64,000 nt of DNA from Candidatus Heimdallarchaeota archaeon (lineage in GTDB: Archaea; Asgardarchaeota; Heimdallarchaeia; Heimdallarchaeales; Heimdallarchaeaceae), in NCBI GenBank assembly GCA_030603365.1, contig JAUVXV010000010.1, positions 32,001 to 96,000 of the forward strand, in the 5' to 3' direction. The number at the start of each line of letters is the position of its first letter. Position 1 is the first letter of the stretch. Positions 15,531 through 61,877 of this stretch are shown here, piece after piece. The notes beneath the pieces are model-generated. The model saw only the letters and a list, made by a program, of their open reading frames with translations, searched no databases and was not told the DNA's origin. Both the position numbers and the translations under genes were made by a program.

Positions 15531-15737
15531 TCAATGTGGATGCAACTTCATATTTCCTTCTTTATCGATAATTGCACCAGCATGTCTTAACGCCCAACAA
15601 GAAATAACCACTCCCACAGGCAAACTTGCGGGATGTCGAGCTGCGAATTCCATATGAACATCTAACACTGAAGGTCCTTCACCTAAACTAATGGCACCAA
15701 TTTCTAACTTATTCAAGATTTCAATAAGATTTTTCAA
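15531..15737 (-). pseudogene. orphan 3' tail (~68 codons) of fumarate hydratase alpha subunit
   Basis: Near-identical peptide to the C-terminus of 16505-17389, with mostly synonymous nucleotide changes. Confidence 0.9.
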
Positions 15738-15743
15738 GTAAAA

Positions 15744-16412
15744 TTATTTCTTCATTCTCAAGATATTATTTCTCTTTCTATTGTAGAAGTAAGAGATTAC
15801 AAATAAAATTGGAAGAAGAACTGAAAATAAAGGAATAGCCTTGAGTTTAAAGGGATTTTCATTGAAAGAGATTTCAGAACCATTATCAGAAATTTCTAGA
15901 GATATTCTTGCTGGAGCTATTATCTCCTCATAGATACTAGCTTTCCATTCACCAATAGTAATTTCATACAGTCCTTTTGGAAGCTCTGTTATAGTAGGAT
16001 CATATATAAAAAATTGAGCAGATGCCCACGAAATAGTTTGACCAGGAGGAAAAGTTAAGGAGACACAGGCCAGAGTACAAATTTCACCTCCATTTTTAGT
16101 CTCTAAACTTTTATTCTGCAAATTGCATTTGACTGAAGAATCCCATAAACATCCATCACCAAATCCTATAATGATATCAGTTAAGTAGATGTTAGTAATA
16201 GTCAAGTCTATAGAGAACTTAAAATTGACTGAATCTTCAAACTGACCCCAAAGATGCCAAGATAAAGAAGAAGGTGTTAAACTAAGCACATTGGTCATTT
16301 CAGATTCATCAGTATTAGAAATAACAGTTTCAGACAAACTACTGATAACAAGGAAAATAGAAAATAGAGGAATAAATAACTGTCTCTTCTTCATTAGATT
16401 TCTAGTAAACAT
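15744..16412 (-). CDS. secreted/membrane-anchored hypothetical protein (cargo)
   Basis: Signal-like N-terminus, beta-rich core, C-terminal TM + basic tail. Confidence 0.7.
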   Translation of the reverse strand: MFTRNLMKKRQLFIPLFSIFLVISSLSETVISNTDESEMTNVLSLTPSSLSWHLWGQFEDSVNFKFSIDLTITNIYLTDIIIGFGDGCLWDSSVKCNLQNKSLETKNGGEICTLACVSLTFPPGQTISWASAQFFIYDPTITELPKGLYEITIGEWKASIYEEIIAPARISLEISDNGSEISFNENPFKLKAIPLFSVLLPILFVISYFYNRKRNNILRMKK

Positions 16413-16504
16413 AGTAGAATAGGAATATTAAGCTTTTGTAGAAAAATAATAAGAGCTTTAGATAATGATTCGGAGTGTGAAATATACTAAAATGAGAAAA
16501 AATG

Positions 16505-17389
16505 TTAGTGGGGATGCAACTCCACATTTCCTTCTTTATCAATAGTTGCTCCAGCATGTCTTAAAGCCCAACATGAAATAACTACTCCAACAGGCAAACT
16601 CGCTGGATGTCGAGCAGCGAATTCCATATGAACATCTAAAACTGATGGTCCTTCACCTAGACCCATTGCTCCTATTTCCAGTTTGTTTAAGATACTCAAA
16701 AGTTCTTTTTCAATTGAAGCAATACTTTCATCTTCATGGTACTTAAATAATGGTCGTAAAAGAGCCTTCTTTGCTAGGTTCATACACATATCTTCTCCTC
16801 CACCAACACCCACACCAACTGTATAAGGAGGACATGCGAGCGGACCAGCAGCAGCAACTGCTTCTACAACAAATTCTTTTACACCTTTGATACCTTTACC
16901 AGGAGGAACCATTTTCATTTTACCCACATTTGATGATCCTCCACCCTTAGGCATGGCAATGATTTCACATTTATCTCCCTCTACTAAATCGAAATAAAAC
17001 CATGGAACATATCCGCGGATACCAACGTTATTATTGGTGTTTCCTTTAAACATATCAACTGCATTAGGTCTTAATGGAACCTTTTCTGTTGCTCTCTTTG
17101 TTGCTTTGATCAGAGCTGTTTTAATCTCTGATTTTAGTGGAAACTTATCTCCTACTTTCACAAAGAAAGAAACAAGCCCAGTATCTTGGCACATAGGTTT
17201 GATTTCACTTTCTGCAATTCGAACATTTTCATTAATTGCATGTAATTGTGATTTACCTAAAGCTCCTTCTGTTGTATTTTCACTTTTTATTAAAACCTCT
17301 TTAACTTCAGTTGGTAGTTCAGTAGCAGCCAATTTTAACAATCCTACAGCTGTATCTTCTATTACTTGTGCTATATCCTTCATTATCAT
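16505..17389 (-). CDS. fumA: class I fumarate hydratase / tartrate dehydratase alpha subunit
   Basis: PMCQDTG, PKGGGS, ACPPY, RHPA..VVISCWALRH. Confidence 0.9.
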   Translation of the reverse strand: MIMKDIAQVIEDTAVGLLKLAATELPTEVKEVLIKSENTTEGALGKSQLHAINENVRIAESEIKPMCQDTGLVSFFVKVGDKFPLKSEIKTALIKATKRATEKVPLRPNAVDMFKGNTNNNVGIRGYVPWFYFDLVEGDKCEIIAMPKGGGSSNVGKMKMVPPGKGIKGVKEFVVEAVAAAGPLACPPYTVGVGVGGGEDMCMNLAKKALLRPLFKYHEDESIASIEKELLSILNKLEIGAMGLGEGPSVLDVHMEFAARHPASLPVGVVISCWALRHAGATIDKEGNVELHPH

Positions 17390-17525
17390 CACAATTCCTG
17401 TAAAATTTTCTCTTTATTAGCTTCAATATTCTTTTTTGATTCTTCTGTTAAATTTCCACCATGTGTGTCAATTGTTATTGTCAAAGGACCAAATTCTTCT
17501 ACTTCGTAGACCCAGAAACATTCGG
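17389..17525 (-). pseudogene. orphan 3' tail (~45 codons) of fumarate hydratase beta subunit
   Basis: ECFWVYEVEEFGPLTITIDTHGGNLTEESKKNIEANKEKILQEL* is colinear with 20479-20615. Its TGA overlaps the fumA ATG. Confidence 0.9.
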
Positions 17526-17635
17526 TTGAATGCATGTGTTTCACAGAAATAATTTGATTTAAAATCTTGTGTTATATACTTATACTTATTTTGTAAAATC
17601 AAACGTAGTTATTGGAAGTTTAGGAGATAAATGCA

Positions 17636-20353
17636 TCAAATATCATTCCAATTTGAAACTATATAATCCCAGGTTTCTTCTAAAGCTATCTCAGGTGTGG
17701 AGTCAAGCACTTCCTTCCATATTTGAAATTGAATGTCTTCTACCAATTTATTAAATAAATTATTTTGTATAGGTAGGATAAATGTCCTATTAATCTCTTT
17801 TCTAATAGTCCACTTATCAACACCATATTTTGTTCCAAAACCTAAAAGAACTTCTCTCCAATCTCCATTACCTGTATAGTCAAATTGAACTTGTTTGTCA
17901 ACAACACGAATTCTAAACCCATTTCGAGGTTCAATAGAACTAGGTAAAAAAAACGACCAGTCATCTATTGTTTGGATATATTCTAGTATCCATGAAAAAA
18001 GAGTTGCCCAGACTTCTTTAAATTCAAATACTATTGCAAAAAGAAGTTTGATGTTAAAATCTCCTTCAGAATTTCTAAAATTATAGTTTGTTTTTAGAAA
18101 ATTTACTGGTTCTACAGGAATACCGGACTGAATAAGTCGTTTCTTCCAAGCATCAACTATCTGATTAGAGCTACTGAATTCAACTCCTCTTACATTGATT
18201 TTAAAAGGAAATTGTAAAAGCATTTTACTTAAAGATTCATTAGTTTTAAAAAATTGATTCAAATTCAATTTAACGCCAAACCAAGGTAATCTACCATTAA
18301 ACCCTACAACTTCAACTGGGGATATTGTTTTTCGATCAAAGAAAATTATAGGTTTAATTAATTTTGATTTATGATTTAGATTAAATCCATCTGGTACTTT
18401 ATAAGGTGGTTCTAAATCTCTTAATATTTTTTGTATCCAATTTGGATTATTTAAATAATGTTGCCAAATTTCTTTTTCACATTCAACATTTACACTATCA
18501 CTAACTAAGAGATCTCCAAAGAATTTAGCTTTCAATTTACTCCAACCACTAAAGAAATCAGATCCTTCTGTTATGCGATTTCTTTTGAAAATTTTTTCAA
18601 GTGAATAAGAACATTCCCAATGTTGATGAAATTTATAGGGTACTACACATTTGCTTTCGAAATTTTTGTCTAGTTTTTTAAATGTTTTTTGACCGAAATT
18701 ATTTAGGGTTTCTAGACAATGAAACATCGTCCCACAATTAAAAACTGAAAATTCTTCAATAATTTTCCTTTGGCTAAGAATCATAATTTCATAGTAGATA
18801 GTTCTTTGCATTTCATTAATCTTTTTAACTATTTCAAGTTCAGACATACCATCATGAATCAAACAAGGAGAGAGTTTATCCAGAGCTCCTTTCAAAATTG
18901 AATTCAGCATTGAATAGGTTGGGTATTTATCAGATGATTTTTTACCAGATTTTATCATGTCTTGAAGATTTGTATTAAAACAATCTAGAGATAATCTTAT
19001 TGTTCCATCTTTCGTTTTTACAAAGATTGGCAAAAATACATCTCGATGTATTTTGATTGATATAAATCTATTATTGTTATAACTTGTTCTAGTTTTTACT
19101 TTAAGTTCTATTTCTTGAACAGCTTCATCTGCAACGGTGAAATATCCGTTTTTTGTTACTAATTTATGTGCATTACCATGTTGAATTAAGGAAATTAATT
19201 GGTTTTGCTTTATAGCTCCCTTCAATATTCTATTAATTGTAATTTGAGAAAGCCCTGAATCTATCAGAACATTTCGTAAATTTCCTGATTTAATTTTTTT
19301 ATTAAAGTTGAAACCCACACCAGAAGTTGTGAATAAATATTTCTTTCTTAAAGCATCCACCAAATCATTTGCTTTCTTGAAACCAATCTTTAAATGGATA
19401 AGTTCCACATGTTTTGCTTTCAAAAATGAATCAATATCATCAAATATTTGTGTAGTAAATTTGATATTCTTACTTGTTCTAATATAGTCAAAAAAACCCC
19501 CCAAATCCTCCCCTACTTTCATTTCAACAATCTTAAGATCATACTTTGCAGATTTTCCTTTTCCAATTACTCCTAAAATAATGTCATCGAACCCATTGGA
19601 ACTGGAAAACTTACCTTTTAATCCTCTAATTAATATTTTATCTAGTTTTAATGAAACCCCATTGATATTCCAAAACCGCCGCATTTCATCTTTTTCGAAA
19701 TTTAATTTAATTTGAGCTTTTAGAAAACTCTCAGCTGTATGAGTACTTGTAATTCCTTTAACACCATATTTAGTCAATAGTACTCTTACATATGAATCAG
19801 ATTCTGAAGGTTCAAGAGGTGTCGAAAATTGTTTCAGATCTAGAGAATCAGAGGTTCTTTGATACTTTTGACAATTTCCATTTTTTGAATCATTATAATC
19901 CTTCAAAAAATGAATTCCAAGCTCATTTACATTTCTTTCTCCATATTGATTTAAAGGACCAAAAACCTTGTTGAGGTTTTCAGAATCATTAATGAGAGAA
20001 TTTACCCAATTATCGTAATTACTTTCTGGTTTTCCATGTAGATCGTTTATATCATTCCTAAGACGATTTGAATATTCAATACTCTCATTTAGGTGTGAAA
20101 TTAGAATCTTCTTAAACTGATTTTCGTTCTCCGTCAGATTATTTTGTATAACAAATCTACTCCTTACAAAATTTGAATTATCTTGTTTCATAGTTTCCAT
20201 ACTGAAATCCAAACTATCTTTATTTTGAGCAATTAACTTTGTTATTTGTTTTTTTATTTGCTTAATTGTTTTTAATTCATCTTCTATTTTCTTAAACAAA
20301 TTATCAGATTCTAGCTGTTTGTGAGCTTTGTTTTCATTTATTCTTGTATTCAT
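17636..20353 (-). CDS. 905-aa hypothetical protein with putative PD-(D/E)XK nuclease domain (cargo)
   Basis: Long, very AT-rich ORF; N-terminal coiled coil; HTAE...NGFDD...IVEMK motif. Confidence 0.65.
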   Translation of the reverse strand: MNTRINENKAHKQLESDNLFKKIEDELKTIKQIKKQITKLIAQNKDSLDFSMETMKQDNSNFVRSRFVIQNNLTENENQFKKILISHLNESIEYSNRLRNDINDLHGKPESNYDNWVNSLINDSENLNKVFGPLNQYGERNVNELGIHFLKDYNDSKNGNCQKYQRTSDSLDLKQFSTPLEPSESDSYVRVLLTKYGVKGITSTHTAESFLKAQIKLNFEKDEMRRFWNINGVSLKLDKILIRGLKGKFSSSNGFDDIILGVIGKGKSAKYDLKIVEMKVGEDLGGFFDYIRTSKNIKFTTQIFDDIDSFLKAKHVELIHLKIGFKKANDLVDALRKKYLFTTSGVGFNFNKKIKSGNLRNVLIDSGLSQITINRILKGAIKQNQLISLIQHGNAHKLVTKNGYFTVADEAVQEIELKVKTRTSYNNNRFISIKIHRDVFLPIFVKTKDGTIRLSLDCFNTNLQDMIKSGKKSSDKYPTYSMLNSILKGALDKLSPCLIHDGMSELEIVKKINEMQRTIYYEIMILSQRKIIEEFSVFNCGTMFHCLETLNNFGQKTFKKLDKNFESKCVVPYKFHQHWECSYSLEKIFKRNRITEGSDFFSGWSKLKAKFFGDLLVSDSVNVECEKEIWQHYLNNPNWIQKILRDLEPPYKVPDGFNLNHKSKLIKPIIFFDRKTISPVEVVGFNGRLPWFGVKLNLNQFFKTNESLSKMLLQFPFKINVRGVEFSSSNQIVDAWKKRLIQSGIPVEPVNFLKTNYNFRNSEGDFNIKLLFAIVFEFKEVWATLFSWILEYIQTIDDWSFFLPSSIEPRNGFRIRVVDKQVQFDYTGNGDWREVLLGFGTKYGVDKWTIRKEINRTFILPIQNNLFNKLVEDIQFQIWKEVLDSTPEIALEETWDYIVSNWNDI

Positions 20354-20478
20354 GATGATAACTTCATATTATAATGCTAAAAATGATTTAAAAACTCATG
20401 AAAAAACATATAACTAAGTAAAAGTGGAAAAAGGGGTTAAGATTTAGAAATCTTAGTGAAAAAACCAAAATTATTTTT

Positions 20479-21075
20479 TTACAAGTTTTGTATAATTTTA
20501 TTTTTGTTCTCTTCTATCTTCTTTTTGCTTTTTTCAGTCATATTACCACCATGGGTATCAATTGTTATAGTTAAAGGACCAAAGTTTTCTACATCGAAGA
20601 GCCAAAGCGATTCGGGCATTCCCAACTCCTCAAACCAAAAAACGTCCTTGACTTTCTTTATTCTATTTGCTGCGAGTAGTGCAGCACCTCCTGTAAAGTA
20701 ACCATAAATGCATGTTTCCTCTTGGCATGCTTTTGTAGTTCTTTCTCCCATACCACCTTTACCTATGATGATACCTGGCTGGAAAACTCTAATGAATTCA
20801 TCTTGGAAAATTTCCATTCTTGCTGAAGTTGTTGGTCCTGCTGCAACAACAATCCATTCACCTTCTTCATTCTTCTTCATGACTGGACCGCAGTGGAAAA
20901 GACCAATCCCTTTGAAATCTACGGGAGGTTTTTCTCCTTTTTTATGCAGTTCCAATGCTTTTAGATGAGCCTCATCCCGAGCAGTTACAACCGTCCCTGT
21001 GAGATACACAATATCCCCAATAGATATTTTCTTCAAATCTTCTGGGGGAATTGGAGTAGTCAAATGATATTCCAT
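20479..21075 (-). CDS. fumB: class I fumarate hydratase / tartrate dehydratase beta subunit
   Basis: TARDEAH, HCGP, GPTTSARM, IGKGGM, FGPLTITIDTHG. Confidence 0.9.
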   Translation of the reverse strand: MEYHLTTPIPPEDLKKISIGDIVYLTGTVVTARDEAHLKALELHKKGEKPPVDFKGIGLFHCGPVMKKNEEGEWIVVAAGPTTSARMEIFQDEFIRVFQPGIIIGKGGMGERTTKACQEETCIYGYFTGGAALLAANRIKKVKDVFWFEELGMPESLWLFDVENFGPLTITIDTHGGNMTEKSKKKIEENKNKIIQNL

Positions 21076-54141: not shown

Positions 54142-55686
54142 ATGAGAAATCATCTTTCTATCATTTGCTTTATCCTTGTAATTTTAGCTCCATTTACTGG
54201 AACTGGATCAACTTTACAGCAAGCTAGTCCTACAATTGTCGATTATATCTATTGTAATAGTAATATTATAACAATTGATGATTCCAGCTCATTGTTTGAA
54301 GCTATTGCAATTAAAGATGGCATTATAGTTGCCTTAGGTAGTAACGAAGAAATTCTATCAAATTATGAAGCAGAAAATAATCAATGCTATAATCTGGAAG
54401 GACGAACCATTATGCCTGGAATAATCGATGGTCATACACACTATATGGCATCATTATTTTGGATTGGAGAAACAGAAACAATCTATGAATCTCAAATTTT
54501 AGCTTTAGCTAATGGCTATACAACCTTAAATGAAAAAAGTATAGACATGGGTGAATTTCAATGGTTACAGGAAGCAGAACAAAGTAATACGCTTCGTCTT
54601 CGAGTAAACGCTTTTCTTATTTACAATTATGCTTGGCTTGAAAATAATGAATCTGTATTAGTTGAACACTGGAATCCAGATTTAGAACCTCTACTAAATC
54701 ATGACCGCAAGTTTCGTGTTCCTGGATTCAAAATCTATTTAGATGGAGCTTACGGACACCGAGGTTTTCCAGCAATGAGTGACCCTTATACACAGGAAAT
54801 GATAGATTTATGGGGGATTATCAATCCTTATGGAGATCTTTATTTTAATCAATCAGAATTAAATTCAGTAGTAGATTCTTTTCATGATAGAGGTTTTAGT
54901 GTAGCTGTTCACGCAATGGGTGATAGAGCAACTGAAACAATCCTAAATTCTATAGAATATGCTTTGAATGGGACAGATAATGATAATGCACGACATCAGA
55001 TTGAGCATAACAGCTTCATTAGAGAAGATCAAATCGCTAAAGCTTTATCACTTAATACTATTCATTCTGTTAGAGGCTACTTCCCAACTTATTGGCAGCA
55101 AGAATATGCTGATCTTTACAGTTCCATATGGATGGAAAGGACAGTAAACAGATACTCTCTGCCTGGAGAAGGACTTCATTCTTATCTAGAAACTGATTTT
55201 GGTTTTCTTCATGGTTATGATGAAGATAATTGGAGTAAATCAGCTAATATCAGACCTTTCCTACACTTATGGGGTTTGGTTACTAGAAAAGCAATTGATA
55301 TTAATGGTACAATCCATGAACCTGATCCTTGGGTTGCAGAACATGAAATTACAGTTGAACAAGCACTAAGAATGATGACCATAGAAGGAGCGTATGCAGT
55401 AAAACAAGAGGACTATATTGGTTCTTTGGAAGTTGGTAAATATGCAGATATAATAATTTTAACAGCTGATCCTCTAACAATTGATCCTGATGAGCTAAAA
55501 GATATTGAAGTTATGCTTACAATGGTAGAAGGAAAAATAGAATTCCAAATGGCAAGTCACTCATTCCCAATAACATGTGAGCTTTCAACACCAGGGACAG
55601 ATACAACACCATGGACCATTCTCTTATCAATAACTGGAATATGTGTCATTGTTCTAATAACCACAAAAAAGATAAGAATAAAATAA
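54142..55686 (+). CDS. secreted amidohydrolase-3 (YtcJ-like) with C-terminal TM
   Basis: MPGIIDGHTH, KIYLDG, HAMGD, IEH, GSLEVGKYAD. Confidence 0.85.
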   Translation: MRNHLSIICFILVILAPFTGTGSTLQQASPTIVDYIYCNSNIITIDDSSSLFEAIAIKDGIIVALGSNEEILSNYEAENNQCYNLEGRTIMPGIIDGHTHYMASLFWIGETETIYESQILALANGYTTLNEKSIDMGEFQWLQEAEQSNTLRLRVNAFLIYNYAWLENNESVLVEHWNPDLEPLLNHDRKFRVPGFKIYLDGAYGHRGFPAMSDPYTQEMIDLWGIINPYGDLYFNQSELNSVVDSFHDRGFSVAVHAMGDRATETILNSIEYALNGTDNDNARHQIEHNSFIREDQIAKALSLNTIHSVRGYFPTYWQQEYADLYSSIWMERTVNRYSLPGEGLHSYLETDFGFLHGYDEDNWSKSANIRPFLHLWGLVTRKAIDINGTIHEPDPWVAEHEITVEQALRMMTIEGAYAVKQEDYIGSLEVGKYADIIILTADPLTIDPDELKDIEVMLTMVEGKIEFQMASHSFPITCELSTPGTDTTPWTILLSITGICVIVLITTKKIRIK

Positions 55687-55703
55687 AATGAAATGAAATA
55701 GGA

Positions 55704-55825
55704 TTAATTTAATCCTATAATGTCCCCATCTTCACTGTAGTCCATTCTATTAGCAGTTGGATTGAAGGGAATTAAGGGATTAAAACAAACTACAGTATAC
55801 AGGAAAAAAGTACGAGCTCCAATGG
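55704..55825 (-). pseudogene. second, more decayed orphan 3' tail of fhs
   Basis: ...PTANRMDYSEDGDIIGLN*; weak similarity continues to acgagctcc (GAR codons). Confidence 0.8.
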
Positions 55826-55902
55826 TAGTCTCTTTCTTCTTTAGAATCTATAGGAGATTTATGAAAGACAACTATAAATAATACAAATGATATAATTTAG
55901 GT

Positions 55903-56274
55903 ATGTCTGAAGAGGAGATTAAAGAACTGGAAGAGTTCCTTTTACCATATGTTAATGACAGACTTGACAAGTGGTACATAGCTACTAAAATTGGAGAGTG
56001 TTTTATGTGGGTTGCTAGAGCCTTGATTAGATGTCTTCTAAATGTTACCGAGAAGATTCATTTGCATGAAATAACGTCGATTTCACTTTCTGAAGTTTAT
56101 TTTATAGAAAAAATTAATATATTTCAGAATAAGGATGGTGCTATTTCCAGCTTTATGGAAATGGACCCACATAAAATTTCAGGAGAAATACACCAATGGA
56201 TTATTCATCTTCAGGAAAATGGAAAACTCTCCGGAATATACGAAAGGCATACTGGATTTTATCGAAATAAATAG
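55903..56274 (+). CDS. hypothetical protein, possibly frameshifted/pseudogene
   Basis: 123-aa ORF with an overlapping downstream frame (56135-56347). Confidence 0.45.
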   Translation: MSEEEIKELEEFLLPYVNDRLDKWYIATKIGECFMWVARALIRCLLNVTEKIHLHEITSISLSEVYFIEKINIFQNKDGAISSFMEMDPHKISGEIHQWIIHLQENGKLSGIYERHTGFYRNK

Positions 56275-56468
56275 TTATGATAACTTTTGGGACATATATC
56301 AACTAAACCGCATCATGTTCATGAAAGAGGGAAAAAAGATGCAGTAGAAAGCGAGATGACAGGAAACTCTGATAACGACATACCTCTACTAATTGAAGTT
56401 TTGAAGATATTTCTAGTGTAAAAATGAGCATATTCTGTATGAAGAATTATGACATAGTAAAAGTTTGT

Positions 56469-56518
56469 TAAAAAAAAAGGGGTTTGCTCCAACTTCTGTT
56501 GGATTAGAACAGAGTGGA
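56469..56518 (-). terminator. hairpin + T-tract after gene 56543-57100
   Basis: Minus strand: CTCCACTCTGTT..AACAGAAGTTGGAG followed by CCCC and a T run. Confidence 0.55.
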
Positions 56519-56542
56519 GTGTGTTTCAAAGGTTATTTATGC

Positions 56543-57100
56543 TTAATAAGGCATAAAATAATTGTTCATAAAGGCTAAGTCTACTCCAGGAGTTACATAG
56601 TGTGCCATTCCTGGCATTGGTCCACCGTCGAAGTTGAAGGCTGTTCTGGCTGTATGTTTGAGCCAAATAACTTTATCAGGATGTTCAGCTCCACCATCAA
56701 CTGCTCTCATTTCATGTCTATGAACATATCCCATACTGGCATATGCTTCAGCCTTTTCTGGACTCCATGTATCGATAATACCATGTACTATGAAAAGGAG
56801 TTCACCATCAGCTGCGTCAGAAGACCACCATTGTGCCATTCCAAAAGGACCAGTGTTATAGTGTTTTCCAACGAACTGATTAGGTCCAGCTTGTACCCAG
56901 TAATGACCAGGAACATCGAATTCTCCATTAGGACCATCAGGCGCACCTGCCATGTAATAATCTATTCCATCAACATTGAAAACGATCCCATGTACAAAAC
57001 CTTTAGCGTTTGCTGAGGTTGTTTCTGCAGATGCTAGTGCTGTTAAAGCAAAAATCGAAAGCATAAACAAACTCAGACCGATTGTTTTTGATTTATTCAT
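56543..57100 (-). CDS. secreted Gly/His-rich hypothetical protein (cargo)
   Basis: Signal peptide; PGHYW, HYNTGP, HRHE, WLKH His-rich motifs. Confidence 0.75.
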   Translation of the reverse strand: MNKSKTIGLSLFMLSIFALTALASAETTSANAKGFVHGIVFNVDGIDYYMAGAPDGPNGEFDVPGHYWVQAGPNQFVGKHYNTGPFGMAQWWSSDAADGELLFIVHGIIDTWSPEKAEAYASMGYVHRHEMRAVDGGAEHPDKVIWLKHTARTAFNFDGGPMPGMAHYVTPGVDLAFMNNYFMPY

Positions 57101-57274
57101 AATTCATCAAACCGTTAAGTGTTACCAATATAATGGTAACATTACTTATAATTAAGTATCCAACTATAAATATATGTGGTTTAAACAAAAATAAACATAT
57201 GATCAAAAAAACCAACTGCAAAAAAGATTATTGTAAGTTTAAATGTGTCAGTATAGATTGAAAATTCACTATAG

Positions 57275-57538
57275 TTGATTTATTTAACGCTAGGGGAACC
57301 AAAATATACGATGGGGGGGAAATATTTGCTGTTAGTACAATTCAAATTAATACGACATTTATTTTACCATTTGATTTCGATGGTGTATATGAAAAAAATC
57401 GGAAGTGATTATGTTGGTTATTATCATTATACGCTTAAAGTAACTGGAACAACTGAACCTACAGATTTTGGTTTCACAATAATAGGAGTAGTGATAGTCG
57501 TTATCTGGATTACTAAACATAGAAAAAAGAAAATATAA
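57275..57538 (+). pseudogene. C-terminal remnant of TM-anchored surface protein
   Basis: ...TGTTEPTDFGFTIIGVVIVVIWITKHRKKKI* tail with no credible start. Confidence 0.5.
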
Positions 57539-57561
57539 GAATGAATAAAAGTAGGGCTAGT

Positions 57562-57873
57562 TTAGTTTAACCCTATAATGTTTCTATCTTCAGTATAGTC
57601 CATTCTGTTAGCTGCTGGAACTGGAGGTAGTCCAGGCAGTAAGAACATGCTACCACAAATGGGAACGATAAAACGAGCACCAGTGTATAATCTGACCTCG
57701 TCAACATTAAGGGTCCAACCCTTGGGTGCACCCATGAGACCAATCTTGTCTGAAAGGTTGAGTTGAGTCTTAGCCATACAGAGAGGGAAGTCAGCAAAAC
57801 CAAGCTTTTCGATGTAAGCAATATCTTGGAGAGCTTGAGGTGAGCATTCTACGCCTTCAACACCATAGATTTT
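57562..57873 (-). pseudogene. orphan 3' tail (~103 codons) of fhs
   Basis: Colinear with 59985-60296 without indels; 7 amino-acid differences and many synonymous changes. Confidence 0.95.
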
Positions 57874-57897
57874 TATTCGAAAAGGAGAAAGAAGCTT

Positions 57898-59976
57898 ATG
57901 AGAGGAACAACTAGAGCAATAATCATGTTATTGATAGGGACCTCTTTGTTCAGTCCTTTGCTGATCGAATCAGATAATCAAAAAGATTTGAATTCATCTC
58001 CTTCTTCTCCTTTTCTTTTTTCTTATTCTAGTGCAATAAATATCGATAATGATTCTGCTTTTATTACATATGGATTTCCAGGAAATGGAACTTTTAGTAA
58101 TCCATTTAGAATTGAAAATCTGGAAATAATCTCAAACGAAACTTACTCGATTCGAATTCAAAATACTAATAGTTTCTTTATCATCACCAACTGTAAACTC
58201 AATTCAACATATAATGGTATTAATTTGAAAAATCTTGCAAACAACACAGCAATTGTAGAAAACAATGTTTTTTCAAATTTTGATCAAGGAATTGGATTAT
58301 ATATAGAAAACTCTTCTTTTACCAAAATTATAGATAATCATTTCTCATACTCAAAGACAGCAATTATGACAAGACTAGATACAGATAATTGTACTATAAT
58401 CAATAACTCCTTTGAGTATATATCAAGTGAATGCTTCTCGATACAAGAATCGGATAATTGTGTAATCATTAGTAATGAATGTTTAATTTCTAGTACCTTT
58501 CTGTACGCCTATTTTTGTGATTATTTGACAGTTGTTAATAATTTCTGTGATGATACGCGACAATTCACTCATGTAAGTCACTCTCAAAATTGTAATATTT
58601 CTAGTAATACATGTTCAAATATTACTGAAAATGGGATATATATTGGAGATACTGATTCATGCGATGTTTTATTCAATGAAATTAATGGAGGTTCAGCTGG
58701 TCTCAGAATTGTATCTTCATCAAATGTAAATATTTGTTGTAATACAATTGAATACTGTAATATTGGATTGGGTTTACGAAAATCCAGAGAATGCTATATT
58801 AAAAAGAATAATTTTACTAAATGCGGCATTTCTATCGATGAAGTAGAAGAACCAGATATTGATACATGGATGTTAGAAGACAATCTAGTTAATGGTAAGT
58901 TACTCGGTTTTTATCGGCACAAAGGAACTAATTTCTTAATTGAAGAAGAATATGGACAACTAATCCTAGTGGATTGTTTCCAAGTGACAGTTAGAAATAT
59001 AAAAATTGAAAACACTAGTATGGGGATAGGTTTATTTTATTGTGATTATTCAATTGTTGAAAACTGCACAATAAGTAATACAGTACAGAATTTTGTCCTC
59101 TATGAATCCTATTCATGTAATATTACAACTAGTTACAGTTTTGCCTCTACTTACGGTCTAGTAGTCTCTCGTTCAGAAAATTGTTATGTTCTAGAAACAG
59201 AAATTTACAACAATGATTATGGGATCCAAATTAGTCTATCAGAATATTGTTACATTAATAAGAATAATATCTTAGCAAATAATCACTATGGAATTGAACT
59301 CCATTTCTCTGATTACTGTGAGATAACAGAAAATACAATCAAAGAGAACATAAAAGGCATTTACCTAAACTTTGTGAGTACAATATTAATTGGAAGTAAT
59401 TACATATCACAAAATTATCCAAATCCCGTTTACAATAATAATTCCGCAGGAATTTATTCAACTGCAGCACTTTGGGTCTCAATTAAACACAATTCTTTTA
59501 CAGATAATGAAAAAGGAATATTGTTGTTGTTTAGTCATTATTTTATGATTTCAGATAATTGTTTTAGGAATAATAACTATGGTATTGTAGGGAAAGAAAT
59601 TTTGGAAAGTGAAATCAAATACAATTGGTTTGAAGAAAACAGCTTTTACGCCATTACTTTAAGTTCTATCTCTACAGGAAACATAATACATCATAATGCA
59701 TTCATAAATAATAATAATGGTAATGTTCAAGTTTTGGATGATGGATTTAATAACACTTGGTATAAAGTGGAAACAGAAGAAGGAAACTATTGGAGTGATT
59801 ATCAAAAAACAGGAAATTATAGTATAGATGGAATGGCAAATTCGTATGATCTCTATCCATTAATGGTAAATCCTTTAAGAAAGAGTTACTCGAGTTATTA
59901 TGCGTTTTTTTCAATGATAATTTTGATTCCAGTAAGTGTTATAGCTTTGAAAAAATATAGAAAAAGAAAAGAGTAA
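57898..59976 (+). CDS. NosD/beta-helix surface protein with C-terminal TM (cargo)
   Basis: Signal peptide, PGNGTFSNPF, NLVNGK.LGF, GNYWSDY..DLYPL, TM + KKYRKRKE. Confidence 0.88.
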   Translation: MRGTTRAIIMLLIGTSLFSPLLIESDNQKDLNSSPSSPFLFSYSSAINIDNDSAFITYGFPGNGTFSNPFRIENLEIISNETYSIRIQNTNSFFIITNCKLNSTYNGINLKNLANNTAIVENNVFSNFDQGIGLYIENSSFTKIIDNHFSYSKTAIMTRLDTDNCTIINNSFEYISSECFSIQESDNCVIISNECLISSTFLYAYFCDYLTVVNNFCDDTRQFTHVSHSQNCNISSNTCSNITENGIYIGDTDSCDVLFNEINGGSAGLRIVSSSNVNICCNTIEYCNIGLGLRKSRECYIKKNNFTKCGISIDEVEEPDIDTWMLEDNLVNGKLLGFYRHKGTNFLIEEEYGQLILVDCFQVTVRNIKIENTSMGIGLFYCDYSIVENCTISNTVQNFVLYESYSCNITTSYSFASTYGLVVSRSENCYVLETEIYNNDYGIQISLSEYCYINKNNILANNHYGIELHFSDYCEITENTIKENIKGIYLNFVSTILIGSNYISQNYPNPVYNNNSAGIYSTAALWVSIKHNSFTDNEKGILLLFSHYFMISDNCFRNNNYGIVGKEILESEIKYNWFEENSFYAITLSSISTGNIIHHNAFINNNNGNVQVLDDGFNNTWYKVETEEGNYWSDYQKTGNYSIDGMANSYDLYPLMVNPLRKSYSSYYAFFSMIILIPVSVIALKKYRKRKE

Positions 59977-59984
59977 AAGTAGGG

Positions 59985-61676
59985 TTAGTTTAACCCTATT
60001 ATATTCCCATCTTCAGTGTAGTCCATTCTGTTTGCTGCTGGAACTGGAGGGAGTCCAGGCAGTAAGAACATGCTACCACAAATGGGAACGATAAAACGAG
60101 CACCAGTGTATAGACGAACTTCATCTACATTGAGAGTCCAACCTTTTGGAGCACCCATCAAACCAATCTTGTCAGATAGACTTAGTTGGGTTTTAGCCAT
60201 ACACATTGGAAAATCAGCGAAACCAAGTTTTTCGATGTAAGCTATATCTTGGAGAGCTTGTGGTGAGTATTCAACATCATCAGCACCGTAGATTTTGGTG
60301 GCGATTTTCTCGATTTTAACTTTAATAGGATCAGAAAATTCGTAAGCAAATTTAACGTCACCAGTTCCTTTTTCGATAGCTTCTAAAACAGCTTCGGCAA
60401 GTTCTATACCACCTTCGCCACCTTTCATGAAAACTTCACTTTCAGCAGCAGTAACACCGAATTCAGAGCACTTGTCTTTAATCCATTTAATCTCTTCATC
60501 AGAATCAAAGGGGAAGCGGTTAATAGCAACAACAGGGGGTATATTAAAGACATTAAGCATGTTATCAAGATGTTTTTCAACATTCTCGAAACCTTTAGCT
60601 AATTCATCCATATGAATATTTTTAGCTTCATCTAAATCTTTGATACCACCGTGGAGTTTGAGGGCACGAGCAGTAACAACAAGAACTACTGCGTTTGGTA
60701 AGGTATCATATTGACGAGCAACAATATCGACAAATTTTTCGAAACCAAGGTCAGCTGCAAAACCACCTTCAGTGATGGTATAATCTGCAAGCTTGAGGGC
60801 AAGCTTTGTAGCAACGATAGAAGAGTTTCCGTGCGCCACGTTAGCAAATGGGCCTGCGTGTATGAACCCTGGTACTCCTTCAAAGTTTTGTACTAGGTTT
60901 GGTTTTATTGCATCTTTCAGTATTAGTGTCATTGCTCCTACTGCTTCAATATCCCTAGCGAAGACTGGCTTATCATCATAAGTGTATCCTAATAGAATAC
61001 TTCCTAATCTTTCTTTCAGTTCTCCCACATCAGCTGATAGAGCTAAAATAGCCATAATTTCTGAAGCTGCTGTAATAACAAAGCCTGTGTTTCGGACATC
61101 ACCACCCATTCTTCTTCCACCAAGTCCAGTAATGATATTTCTTAATGCTCTATCATTCATATCTATTGCTCTTGGCCAAGTTACTTTGGTTGGATCAATG
61201 TTACACTTATTTCCTTTTGTTAAGTGATTGTCAAGCAAAGCTGCTAGTAAATTATGAGCTGAAGTAATAGCATGTAAATCTCCTGTAAAGTGCAGATTTA
61301 TGTCCCACATTGGAAAAACTTGCGAAAGATGACCTCCTGTTGCTCCTCCTTTTATTCCGAAAGTTGGACCCATACTTGGTTCTCTTAAGGCAAACATAAC
61401 TTTCTTGCCTAATCTGTTAAACGCTTGAGAAAGACCTATTGTTGTAACAGTTTTACCTTCACCTGCTCTTGAAGCAGTCATAGCTGTTACAGCGATGAGT
61501 TTTCCATTAGGTTTATCGGATTTTAATATCTTTAGCATTGTTTGATAATTTATTTTTGCTACATATTTTCCGAATTGCTCGAGGTCATCTTCTTCCAGAC
61601 CTACTTTTGCAGCAATTTCCCTAATATTTTTCATATCTTTTTGCTTTTCTTGAGCAATTTCTATGTCAGTTTTCAT
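59985..61676 (-). CDS. fhs: formate--tetrahydrofolate ligase
   Basis: MKTDIEIAQ start, GEGKT, REPSMGP.FGIKGGA, HAGPFANVAHG, MAKTQ. Confidence 0.96.
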   Translation of the reverse strand: MKTDIEIAQEKQKDMKNIREIAAKVGLEEDDLEQFGKYVAKINYQTMLKILKSDKPNGKLIAVTAMTASRAGEGKTVTTIGLSQAFNRLGKKVMFALREPSMGPTFGIKGGATGGHLSQVFPMWDINLHFTGDLHAITSAHNLLAALLDNHLTKGNKCNIDPTKVTWPRAIDMNDRALRNIITGLGGRRMGGDVRNTGFVITAASEIMAILALSADVGELKERLGSILLGYTYDDKPVFARDIEAVGAMTLILKDAIKPNLVQNFEGVPGFIHAGPFANVAHGNSSIVATKLALKLADYTITEGGFAADLGFEKFVDIVARQYDTLPNAVVLVVTARALKLHGGIKDLDEAKNIHMDELAKGFENVEKHLDNMLNVFNIPPVVAINRFPFDSDEEIKWIKDKCSEFGVTAAESEVFMKGGEGGIELAEAVLEAIEKGTGDVKFAYEFSDPIKVKIEKIATKIYGADDVEYSPQALQDIAYIEKLGFADFPMCMAKTQLSLSDKIGLMGAPKGWTLNVDEVRLYTGARFIVPICGSMFLLPGLPPVPAANRMDYTEDGNIIGLN

Positions 61677-61877
61677 AGTAATCATCATCATATCGAGTGT
61701 TAATTGTTTTTTTTCCGAGTTTTGCTTAAAAAGTATTTGCATAGTTATAGAAAACCAAGGTGCCGACGGATTCACTGATGGAGATGCACAGAGTGTCAAT
61801 TCATTGTTTGTCAAATAGATATGTTCTAAAATACCCGTGTTCATTGAGCCATAGAACATTATTAGTGATTATTTCAA

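Follow-up and report, generated by a model that had tools for sequence, protein, structure and literature searches.

Gain of genes by replacement of the end of a resident gene is known for bacterial toxin genes and for a yeast selfish element. No description of archaeal housekeeping genes gaining cargo by end replacement was found in the literature. In Enterobacteriaceae, Rhs loci undergo 'C-terminal displacement' (Jackson et al. 2009, PMC2935791), in which partial copies of the conserved 3' region, variable in length and each with different downstream DNA, are strung out behind the full gene as laterally acquired new ends shunt the old end downstream without an integrase; older fragments are frameshifted. 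What varies in Rhs is the tip, a toxin portion of the same protein that comes with immunity genes, and the retention of orphan fragments has a selective rationale. Effector-immunity modules of the V. cholerae T6SS show 'sequential displacement', for which homology-facilitated illegitimate recombination was proposed and an explicit analogy to integrons, without an integrase, was drawn (Kirchberger et al. 2017, PMC5361080). The resulting arrays are ordered by successive insertions anchored on conserved upstream sequence and the loci are mosaic; the immunity genes are retained under selection, and no recurrent break position is reported.

The WHO homing elements at FBA1 in Torulaspora/Lachancea (Coughlan et al. 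2020, PMC7282813; Osborne et al. 2026, bioRxiv 10.64898/2026.08.13.744650) encode their own cutting enzyme, a LAGLIDADG/zinc-finger endonuclease, and home in diploid meiosis. The 3' part of an essential metabolic gene is swapped for an allelic variant and old fragments pile up downstream; identity is 99% upstream of the cut and 85% downstream of it, and the fragments begin just past the cleavage site (PMC7282813). Additive flexible genomic islands with tRNA-fragment repeats are found in Ca. Actinomarinales (PMC7771536). In integrons, the cassettes are small and promoterless-looking; the newest lies by a fixed end and older ones are pushed back. Tycheposon-type arrays occur at the tRNA genes of Prochlorococcus, and tandem arrays bounded by partial 3' copies of the target gene are typical of integrase-driven integrative elements.

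The locus described here lies in a 64,000-nucleotide stretch of DNA (the window) from a Heimdall-group Asgard archaeon, in which imported genes appear to have been spliced in behind fhs twice, without an integrase. In window coordinates, the array consists of the following features.

54142..55686, plus strand: amidohydrolase gene at the far edge of the array (Pfam Amidohydro_3, 4e-39)
55665..55830, minus strand: tail 2, a decayed remnant of the ancestral fhs 3' end with hairpin and T-run, from about codon 584 to the stop (E 2.5e-11)
55903..56274, plus strand: cargo 2c, a 123-aa ORF of unassigned function, with no Pfam match even at E 5
56543..57100, minus strand: cargo 2b, a predicted secreted protein of 185 aa (signal peptide in the translation)
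57275..57538, plus strand: cargo 2a, an 87-codon ORF with a TM anchor and KKK tail in the translation, convergent on tail 1
57522..57873, minus strand: tail 1, an intact, apparently displaced fhs 3' end with stop, hairpin and T-run (codons 522-624 in the numbering of the 624-codon ORF)
57898..59976, plus strand: cargo 1, a NosD/right-handed beta-helix surface protein of 692 aa (Pfam NosD 2.1e-47, Beta_helix 3.9e-36)
59949..59998, minus strand: fhs stop-codon hairpin and T-run, with a terminator-like match at 59998-59980 and a post-stop stretch common to both tails
59985..61688, minus strand: live fhs, formate--tetrahydrofolate ligase, 567 aa (Pfam PF01268 (FTHFS), E 2.8e-235)

The open frame of fhs extends to 61859; the ATG at 61688 is the start in the relatives, all of which have 567-aa ORFs, and the upstream gene order orf278-M50-fhs is kept across the genus. 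The NosD gene is convergent on fhs, with its final 9 codons on the complement of the fhs hairpin/T-run stretch and its start codon 25 nt from the start of tail 1; its translation has an N-terminal signal/TM segment and a C-terminal TM segment with a Lys/Arg tail. The second cargo block consists of the 185-aa secreted gene and small or decayed ORFs. Cargo 2a has the look of a leftover C-terminus from an older gene for a surface protein; it has no Pfam match, and its C-terminal half resembles an anchor in the relative L055. Cargo 2b has a local GC of 44% against ~30% nearby and 932 homologues of 60-89% identity in Anaerolineae, Gammaproteobacteria, Spirochaetes and Bathyarchaeia; its family is widely transferred. 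An Atlas search with cargo 2c yields at most a weak bacterial PH-like lead.

A preliminary description of the locus read it as gene, cargo, tail, cargo and older tail, with a post-stop sequence common to tail 1 and fhs. Both points were borne out, with the cargo as described. In a search of the whole genome, tail 1 (57562-57873) matches the last 312 nt of fhs at 86% nucleotide identity (E 1.5e-101), and the match continues 40 nt beyond the stop, to 57522. Tail 2 (55704 to ~55830, ~125 nt) matches the fhs end at 77% (E 2.5e-11), with a post-stop match to 55665; the homology of fhs with the tails reaches ~36 nt beyond its stop. No further copies of the fhs end are present in the 3.65-Mb assembly. 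The post-stop CCCTACTTTTA and the stop-codon hairpin are found in fhs and in tail 1 (hairpin at 57575-57552), and the hairpin of tail 2 is preserved through a compensatory change.

The two tails differ in state. Relative to the live end, tail 1 has 92% amino acid identity with zero stops or frameshifts, 36 of 46 differences fall at third positions, and dN/dS is 0.054 at a dS of 0.83. The low dN/dS (0.05) and open frame imply that the two copies diverged as functional genes, each in its own lineage, and the synonymous allelic divergence that the event joined DNA of two lineages; tail 1 is thus a displaced allele from another lineage, not a decayed copy. Same-orientation direct repeats could also come from tandem duplication, so that the fhs end would have been duplicated locally and diverged, with cargo inserted later and without horizontal transfer. 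This history is extremely improbable, as it is at odds with the dS, dN/dS and undamaged frame of tail 1, with orphans in the genus that are nearer to the live fhs of other genomes than to their own, and with cargo of foreign composition that has cross-phylum homologues; the dN/dS of tail 1 rules it out. The origin of the repeats is allelic, not duplicative.

In contrast to tail 1, tail 2 carries three frameshifts, each a 1-nt deletion. It directly abuts the amidohydrolase gene and is collinear with the fhs-amidohydrolase junction of the relative L032, an empty site in which the amidohydrolase lies 20 nt from the fhs stop without cargo. This collinearity settles the earlier concern that the segment at 55704 might be a chance match. 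An amidohydrolase-GNAT pair flanks the arrays of L055 and L116 as well. By gene order, the amidohydrolase gene is the ancestral convergent neighbour of fhs and tail 2 the ancestral fhs end in its ancestral position. The analysis supports the earlier proposal that a single site received two insertions in succession, the newer one lying next to fhs. The claim that decay grows with distance holds for tail 2 and fails for tail 1, whose 14% difference is allelic, which leaves one decayed copy as the basis of the age gradient.

Variable cassette content, which the preliminary description anticipated among relatives, is what the genus displays. Orphan 3' ends are present in 9 of the 19 genus genomes that have fhs, with 1 to at least 4 fragments each and lengths of ~28 to 288 codons; a metagenome scan contributed only seven related contigs. 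The linked cargo varies by genome (beta-helix/caspase pairs, transporters, a P-type ATPase) and overall comprises beta-helix and caspase-like surface proteins, transporters, methyltransferases and similar proteins; the smallest cassettes are 2.4 kb with one ordinary gene. Identical cargo genes are placed differently relative to the orphans in G010 and G013, so cassettes are not fixed units. The orphan of G012 is nearly identical to the live fhs of G013 over codons ~480-610, and that of G013 to the live fhs of G012 over codons 442-590, reciprocal alleles that fit no single simple event history. The tail of G007 is 92% identical to L027.

The reading we favor, with a probability of about 0.65, is that the fhs 3' end is a hot spot of integrase-free, homology-anchored 3'-end replacement. 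Incoming DNA of a related lineage would carry the 3' part of its own fhs with whatever lay downstream and recombine with the resident gene through homology within fhs. The resident fhs would retain its 5' part and acquire the foreign 3' part and cargo, with its own 3' part stranded downstream as an orphan. The array in the window would be the product of two such events. The older would have imported the cargo 2 genes, of which 2a, 2b and 2c are still present, and displaced the ancestral end (tail 2) from about codon 584; the recent one would have imported the NosD gene and left tail 1, from codon 522 on, as its displaced end. A donor of the NosD cassette was not found, the closest homologues being 57-62% identical, and the recent event is therefore without a before/after pair. 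The left joint was presumably made by the cell's own homologous recombination, and the mosaic pattern within fhs supports a homologous joint. For the right joint, end joining, template switching or pairing with an orphan that the donor already carried could be responsible; among right joints, compared without donor sequence, one possible microhomology (13/16) occurs at L105a. Events would begin at preferred break sites, which in the genus may include codon 337.

Across the genus, orphans begin at nt 1009-1015 (codon 337, within 7 nt) in at least five distinct flank contexts; starts at codons 593-597 occur in three or four contexts, and fhs contains at least five boundary classes. Live alleles break at the same place. 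The fhs genes of G010 and G013 diverge by 2.3% before codon 336/337 and by 22% after it. L116, which could be a chimeric metagenome contig, shows a jump from 4.5% to 18% against L118 at codon 338, and its live 3' part and flank are 100% identical over 2.8 kb to the orphan of G016, which is native-like from its first base while the live gene is foreign from the same codon. The breakpoint histogram has its maximum at codons 320-339, in counts that overstate the support because genome pairs are not independent. Codons 338-357 are the most diverse stretch of fhs (0.276 versus 0.141 just upstream) despite encoding the conserved PFANIAHG motif. No conserved arm sequence was found beside the fhs orphan boundaries, and no restriction site or motif is common to the boundaries at 13 loci of the genome; GGNCC is present at fhs codon 336/337, and the junctions regenerate no site.

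Recurrent boundaries with differing flanks are not expected from random illegitimate joining, and no enzyme accounts for them. The T6SS modules resemble fhs in their ordered arrays and mosaic loci, but homology-facilitated illegitimate recombination alone does not predict the codon-337 hot spot.

The codon-337 signatures, namely orphan starts in many contexts, the leap in live-allele divergence at exactly that codon and the diversity just past it, are the ones reported for WHO elements at yeast FBA1 (PMC7282813). As in WHO, the host gene is metabolic, its 3' part has been replaced by an allelic variant with the old part left downstream, and the phylogeny of the 5' part disagrees with that of the 3' part. 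An endonuclease with site specificity, whose gene would lie in some cassettes or elsewhere, might cut sensitive fhs alleles at fixed sites (codon 337, perhaps 442, 522, ~550 and ~595), with the orphan beginning at the cut; repair from a resistant donor would then copy the donor 3' part and cargo, and the cassettes of the window would be elements minus the nuclease. Such homing is conceivable but doubtful. The common start and divergence jump characterize the genus at codon 337, not codon 522 of the window: the tail 1 boundary is a singleton present in no relative, and the live fhs of the window is a complex mosaic with no clean breakpoint at codon 522. Relatives are uninformative on whether the live 3' end of the window is native or foreign, as the gene is a multi-breakpoint mosaic. 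Unlike WHO elements, fhs cassettes carry ordinary accessory genes; LAGLIDADG, HNH, GIY-YIG or other nuclease domains are absent from ~55 cargo ORFs, and neither Pfam to E 5 nor one Atlas search revealed a nuclease in those of unassigned function. LAGLIDADG is confined in the own genome to inteins on contig C17 and HNH to C16, away from fhs. Many nucleases would also be needed for the same architecture at many different genes. TnpB-guided homing was rejected; TnpB-like genes number 19-32 per genome, but none lies inside any fhs array.

The fhs locus shares with Rhs an intact gene followed by laterally acquired, variable-length fragments with different downstream sequence. As has been proposed for the same architecture in Rhs (PMC2935791), homologous recombination only could suffice: recombination between fhs and an orphan would pop out a circle with an fhs fragment and cargo, and the transferred circle would enter another fhs by a single crossover. 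Several observations are consistent with this model. A 60-nt patch (codons ~583-603) is identical in tail 1 and the live end and could mark a crossover; the orphans of G010 and G013 have a common 3' tip and ICMT flank (92-100% identity) and are 23% different upstream, as expected of a crossover near the end; and the S8+224-aa cassette retains its junction flank between L055 and L113. However, the model is unable to make new cargo-fragment junctions, yet codon 337 has at least five flanks; in G016 the crossover would have to lie exactly at the border of the fragment; and the first orphan still requires an illegitimate event. It is likewise only tentatively entertained. The anchor at fhs is a housekeeping gene of an archaeal host, the replaced part is functionally equivalent and the cargo is unrelated and often convergent, in contrast to the toxin tip and immunity gene exchanged in Rhs, neither of which occurs as such a unit in fhs cargo.

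Tandem accretion is also known from integrative elements, for example the ICE/CIME at streptococcal fda or tRNA-gene islands. Decayed integrase-driven elements that targeted the fhs 3' end and brought a replacement end, with the integrase lost or acting in trans, would leave tandem arrays bounded by partial 3' copies, and the recurrent start point could be an att core. We regard this history as quite unlikely. Pfam detects no integrase among the ~55 cargo ORFs of ~12 arrays; the whole own genome has a single PF00589 match, far off on contig C11; tyrosine recombinases are missing from four of the five relatives with arrays, in genus MAGs that are 72-92% complete and in which a recombinase could be unassembled; and fhs contigs have no serine recombinases. 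The recombinase and the short att core, identical at either end, that such elements should show were not seen, the boundaries lack a conserved arm and fall into at least five classes in one gene, many genes are affected, and cassettes are as small as 2.4 kb with a single ordinary gene. Searches for recombinase families, covering the own genome and five relatives, led to the rejection of an integrase-driven island. Although content varies between close relatives at fhs as at tRNA-gene islands and tycheposons, the latter target tRNA genes, have short repeats and are generally attributed to site-specific recombinases, whereas the fhs repeats are long (90-860 nt) and protein-coding, with several boundary classes.

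The earlier comparison with integron accretion holds for the array order, with small, promoterless-looking cassettes, and for the lack of integrase and attC: no IntI-type recombinase gene adjoins the array, and no attC was found at cassette ends, which consist of fhs 3' fragments of 28-288 codons. The sole structure common to these ends is the fhs stop-codon hairpin, part of the gene itself. The comparison fails in that what is repeated is part of the neighbouring gene, the cassettes have no fixed limits and the same architecture recurs elsewhere; by analogy, Rhs and T6SS displacement and yeast WHO elements appear to be closer matches. The orphan-tail layout was verified at fumA and fumB in the same window and flagged at about six more loci of the genome.

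Large genomes with many transferred genes are characteristic of Asgard archaea, yet integrases are almost absent in the present genus. The fhs, fumA/fumB and other loci highlight a concrete entry route, in which foreign genes ride on a replacement end. Each event leaves a datable fossil behind a conserved gene, and orphan tails provide a built-in chronology and donor signature of horizontal transfer in uncultured archaea. The codon-337 break, mirrored in live alleles, makes plain recombination testable against WHO-type homing, so far known only from yeast. It is possible, though rather improbable, that the Heimdall group has a prokaryotic WHO counterpart, in which a putative site-specific nuclease makes its cut at set codons of housekeeping genes, fhs among them, and repair from a resistant allele swaps the 3' part and drags its neighbours along. 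If true, selfish homing would generally drive gene gain in the closest archaeal relatives of eukaryotes.

Two displaced copies of the end of fhs, the formate--tetrahydrofolate ligase gene, lie behind the live gene with cargo between them, and a search of the whole 3.65-Mb assembly (17 contigs; the window is G000:C3:32001-96000) detects no further copies. Given the two matches (tail 1, E 1.5e-101; tail 2, E 2.5e-11), the array proposed in the preliminary description is real.

Features of the fhs array
59985-61688, minus strand: fhs, 567 aa
57898-59976, plus strand: NosD/beta-helix gene, between fhs and tail 1
57562-57873: tail 1, copy of the last 312 nt of fhs, 86% identity
56543-57100, minus strand: secreted 185-aa cargo gene, in a GC-rich patch (44% vs ~30% local GC)
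55704 to ~55830: tail 2, shorter fhs-end copy, 77%
59980-59998, 57552-57575 and 55700-55720: hairpins at the fhs and tail ends
59949-59976, 57522-57538 and 55665-55686: ends of the three genes convergent on fhs or its tails

The homology of both tails to fhs continues ~36 nt beyond the stop codon, across a hairpin and a T-run. The fhs hairpin spans the stop codon; in tail 2 a compensatory G:C to A:T change preserves it. It probably serves as a terminator or 3'-end structure that each tail brings along. A different hairpin occupies its place in the relative L108. The NosD gene is preceded by a TTTTTATT box 21-28 nt ahead of its start, and the interval between the tails holds 87 codons left over from a gene for a membrane-anchored protein, then the secreted 185-aa gene and an ORF of 123 aa. 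Three genes, namely NosD, the 87-codon remnant, and an amidohydrolase gene, are convergent on fhs or its tails; each ends with a TM helix and a Lys/Arg-rich tail, the codons of this tail lying on the strand opposite the fhs T-run. The 185-aa cargo gene looks like a widely transferred gene, its family (~180 aa) having 932 matches with 60-89% identity in Anaerolineae, Gammaproteobacteria, Spirochaetes, and Bathyarchaeia. The JGI label for this family is 'selenium-binding protein 1'.

The two tails differ in their state of preservation. Tail 1 is open across all 104 codons and differs from the live fhs end at 46 positions, 36 of which are third positions (dN 0.045, dS 0.83, dN/dS 0.054). So much synonymous change under purifying selection is more than a stranded fragment can have gathered, so tail 1 and the current end were once the functional fhs ends of two separate lineages, one of them imported. 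Tail 2 carries three single-base deletions and many substitutions, and it aligns base for base with the fhs-amidohydrolase junction of L032 (a relative in which these genes are convergent with no insert), so it is the remainder of the ancestral fhs end. The proposed age order holds in that the newest end lies beside fhs and the oldest farthest from it; the accompanying gradient of decay is carried by tail 2 only, the frame of tail 1 being open. Local duplication is excluded as the origin of the tails.

Upstream of fhs, synteny with orf278 and an M50-type peptidase gene is kept genus-wide; the downstream side is different in nearly each genome. In a set of 25 genomes of the genus, 19 match the fhs 3' half, and nine of these bear at least one extra 3' fragment (orphan); the count takes in contigs that carry fhs and contigs that break at the repeat. 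The cargo differs between genomes, in agreement with the expectation of variable cassette content. Among relatives (G- and L-handles denote their genomes or contigs), it includes beta-helix and caspase-like pairs (L036, twice; L029; L105), an ABC ATPase with an FtsX-like permease (L030), a P-type ATPase with a TRASH regulator together with SHOCT and beta-lactamase-like genes (L026), and elsewhere a subtilase, a solute-binding protein, methyltransferases, and epimerases. G010 and G013 have two genes in common, one of 562 aa (93% identical) and one for a beta-helix protein (89%), whose placement relative to the orphans differs; the cassettes are not fixed units. The frames of most orphans remain open, which points to fast turnover. 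Pairs of NosD-like beta-helix and caspase-like (C14/C13) peptidase genes recur behind fhs in several species (L036:11735-18700, L029:6031-9899, L105:2949-5252) and may be a fast-evolving surface module; the two L036 pairs are ~41-42% identical to each other, and beta-helix genes across different arrays ~30-35%.

The closest match of an orphan is often a live fhs from a different genome. Over codons ~480-610 (numbered in the 624-codon ORF), almost no differences separate the G012 orphan from the live gene of G013, and the same is true of the G013 orphan and the live G012 gene over codons 442-590; a G007 tail has 92% identity with L027. The live fhs genes are mosaic in structure. [quoted passage not shown]

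The boundaries of these events recur. In L030, L036 (twice), L055/L113, L104, L107, and L117, the orphan begins at nt 1009-1015, where codon 337 opens the PFANIAHG motif; these cases represent at least five unrelated upstream flanks, with no conserved arm beside the starts. A second class starts at codons 593-597 (L105b, L109, L110a), and tail 2 of the window begins near codon 584, some ten codons upstream of that class; the remaining starts are at codons 442, 458, 522 (tail 1, the sole case), and 545-558. Divergence between live genes changes at the same place, from 2.3% over codons 58-336 to 22% from codon 336/337 on for G010 and G013, and from 4.5% to 18% at codon 338 for L116 and L118. The orphan of G016 (a MAG) and its 1.9-kb flank match the live 3' part of L116 and its flank at 100% identity, and by this comparison, L116 being possibly a chimeric contig, the live G016 gene is foreign from the same codon at which its orphan begins. 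A pairwise scan of non-independent pairs places the main breakpoint peak at codons 320-339 and smaller ones at 180-189, 420-429, 480-489, and 540-559. The live-allele breakpoints at codons 180-189 (window ~61293-61322) cluster strongly, with no orphan class there. Diversity of fhs is maximal in codons 338-357 (0.276 vs 0.141 immediately upstream) despite the conserved protein motif.

Three routes may lead to such a replacement. Break-initiated repair would begin with a break at a preferred site, use a diverged donor as template, and close the far joint by end joining, template switching, or donor-orphan pairing; it predicts that the orphan starts at the live-gene breakpoint, as observed at codon 337. 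Pop-out and pop-in of a circle by homologous recombination, the model put forward for Rhs (PMC2935791), is consistent with a patch of identity shared by tail 1 and the live fhs end and with the G010 and G013 orphans having only the 3' tip and flank in common, but it is unable to create new joints between cargo and fragment at one fixed position. Homology-facilitated illegitimate recombination, proposed for the V. cholerae T6SS arrays (PMC5361080), predicts no hot spots, in contrast with the recurrent starts.

A dedicated enzyme is not apparent. Approximately 55 cargo ORFs contain no recombinase, transposase, or nuclease domains. The window's own genome (G000) has one tyrosine recombinase gene, on contig C11, and none is detected in four of five array-bearing relatives (81-90% completeness). 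In the same genome, LAGLIDADG is confined to inteins on C17 and HNH to C16; serine recombinases and numerous TnpB-like genes are located away from the fhs arrays. The genus has almost no tyrosine recombinases; G000, G010, G012, G013, and G020 each have 3-5 serine recombinase genes, and all except G020 (seven) have 19-32 TnpB-like (Cas12f1-like_TNB) genes. An integrase-driven history is unlikely. The ordered stack and the integrase-free cargo of the suggested integron-like accretion stand, and the integron comparison is an analogy only.

The stacked layout is not specific to fhs. The fumarase genes of the window are split in the same manner.

Features of the fumarase array (window 15531-21075), in order
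20479-21075, minus strand: fumB-like gene
17636-20353, minus strand: 905-aa cargo behind the fumB-like gene
17391-17525: orphan fumB tail
16505-17392, minus strand: fumA-like gene
15744-16412, minus strand: 222-aa cargo behind the fumA-like gene
15531-15737: orphan fumA tail, Pfam Fumerase positions 216-268

A strict genome screen for live genes whose 3' end recurs in frame as an orphan no more than a few kb away flags further loci (G000:C4:49523/52377, C5:45453/46730, C12:32402-42129, C15:40902-46093, and C15:356711/360374). The left boundaries share no motif across 13 cases of the genome.

The fhs array is a real, dynamic, and ordered stack of displaced gene ends, an architecture already known from bacterial toxin loci and one yeast element family. 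The yeast WHO elements, at FBA1, bear the same hot-spot signature and encode the endonuclease that makes the cut (PMC7282813). No such gene is found in the fhs cargo. A literature search found no description of such gene-end stacks in archaea. What is new here is the setting: a housekeeping gene in an Asgard archaeon, cargo of an ordinary kind, a sharp, recurrent break site, and no enzyme found.
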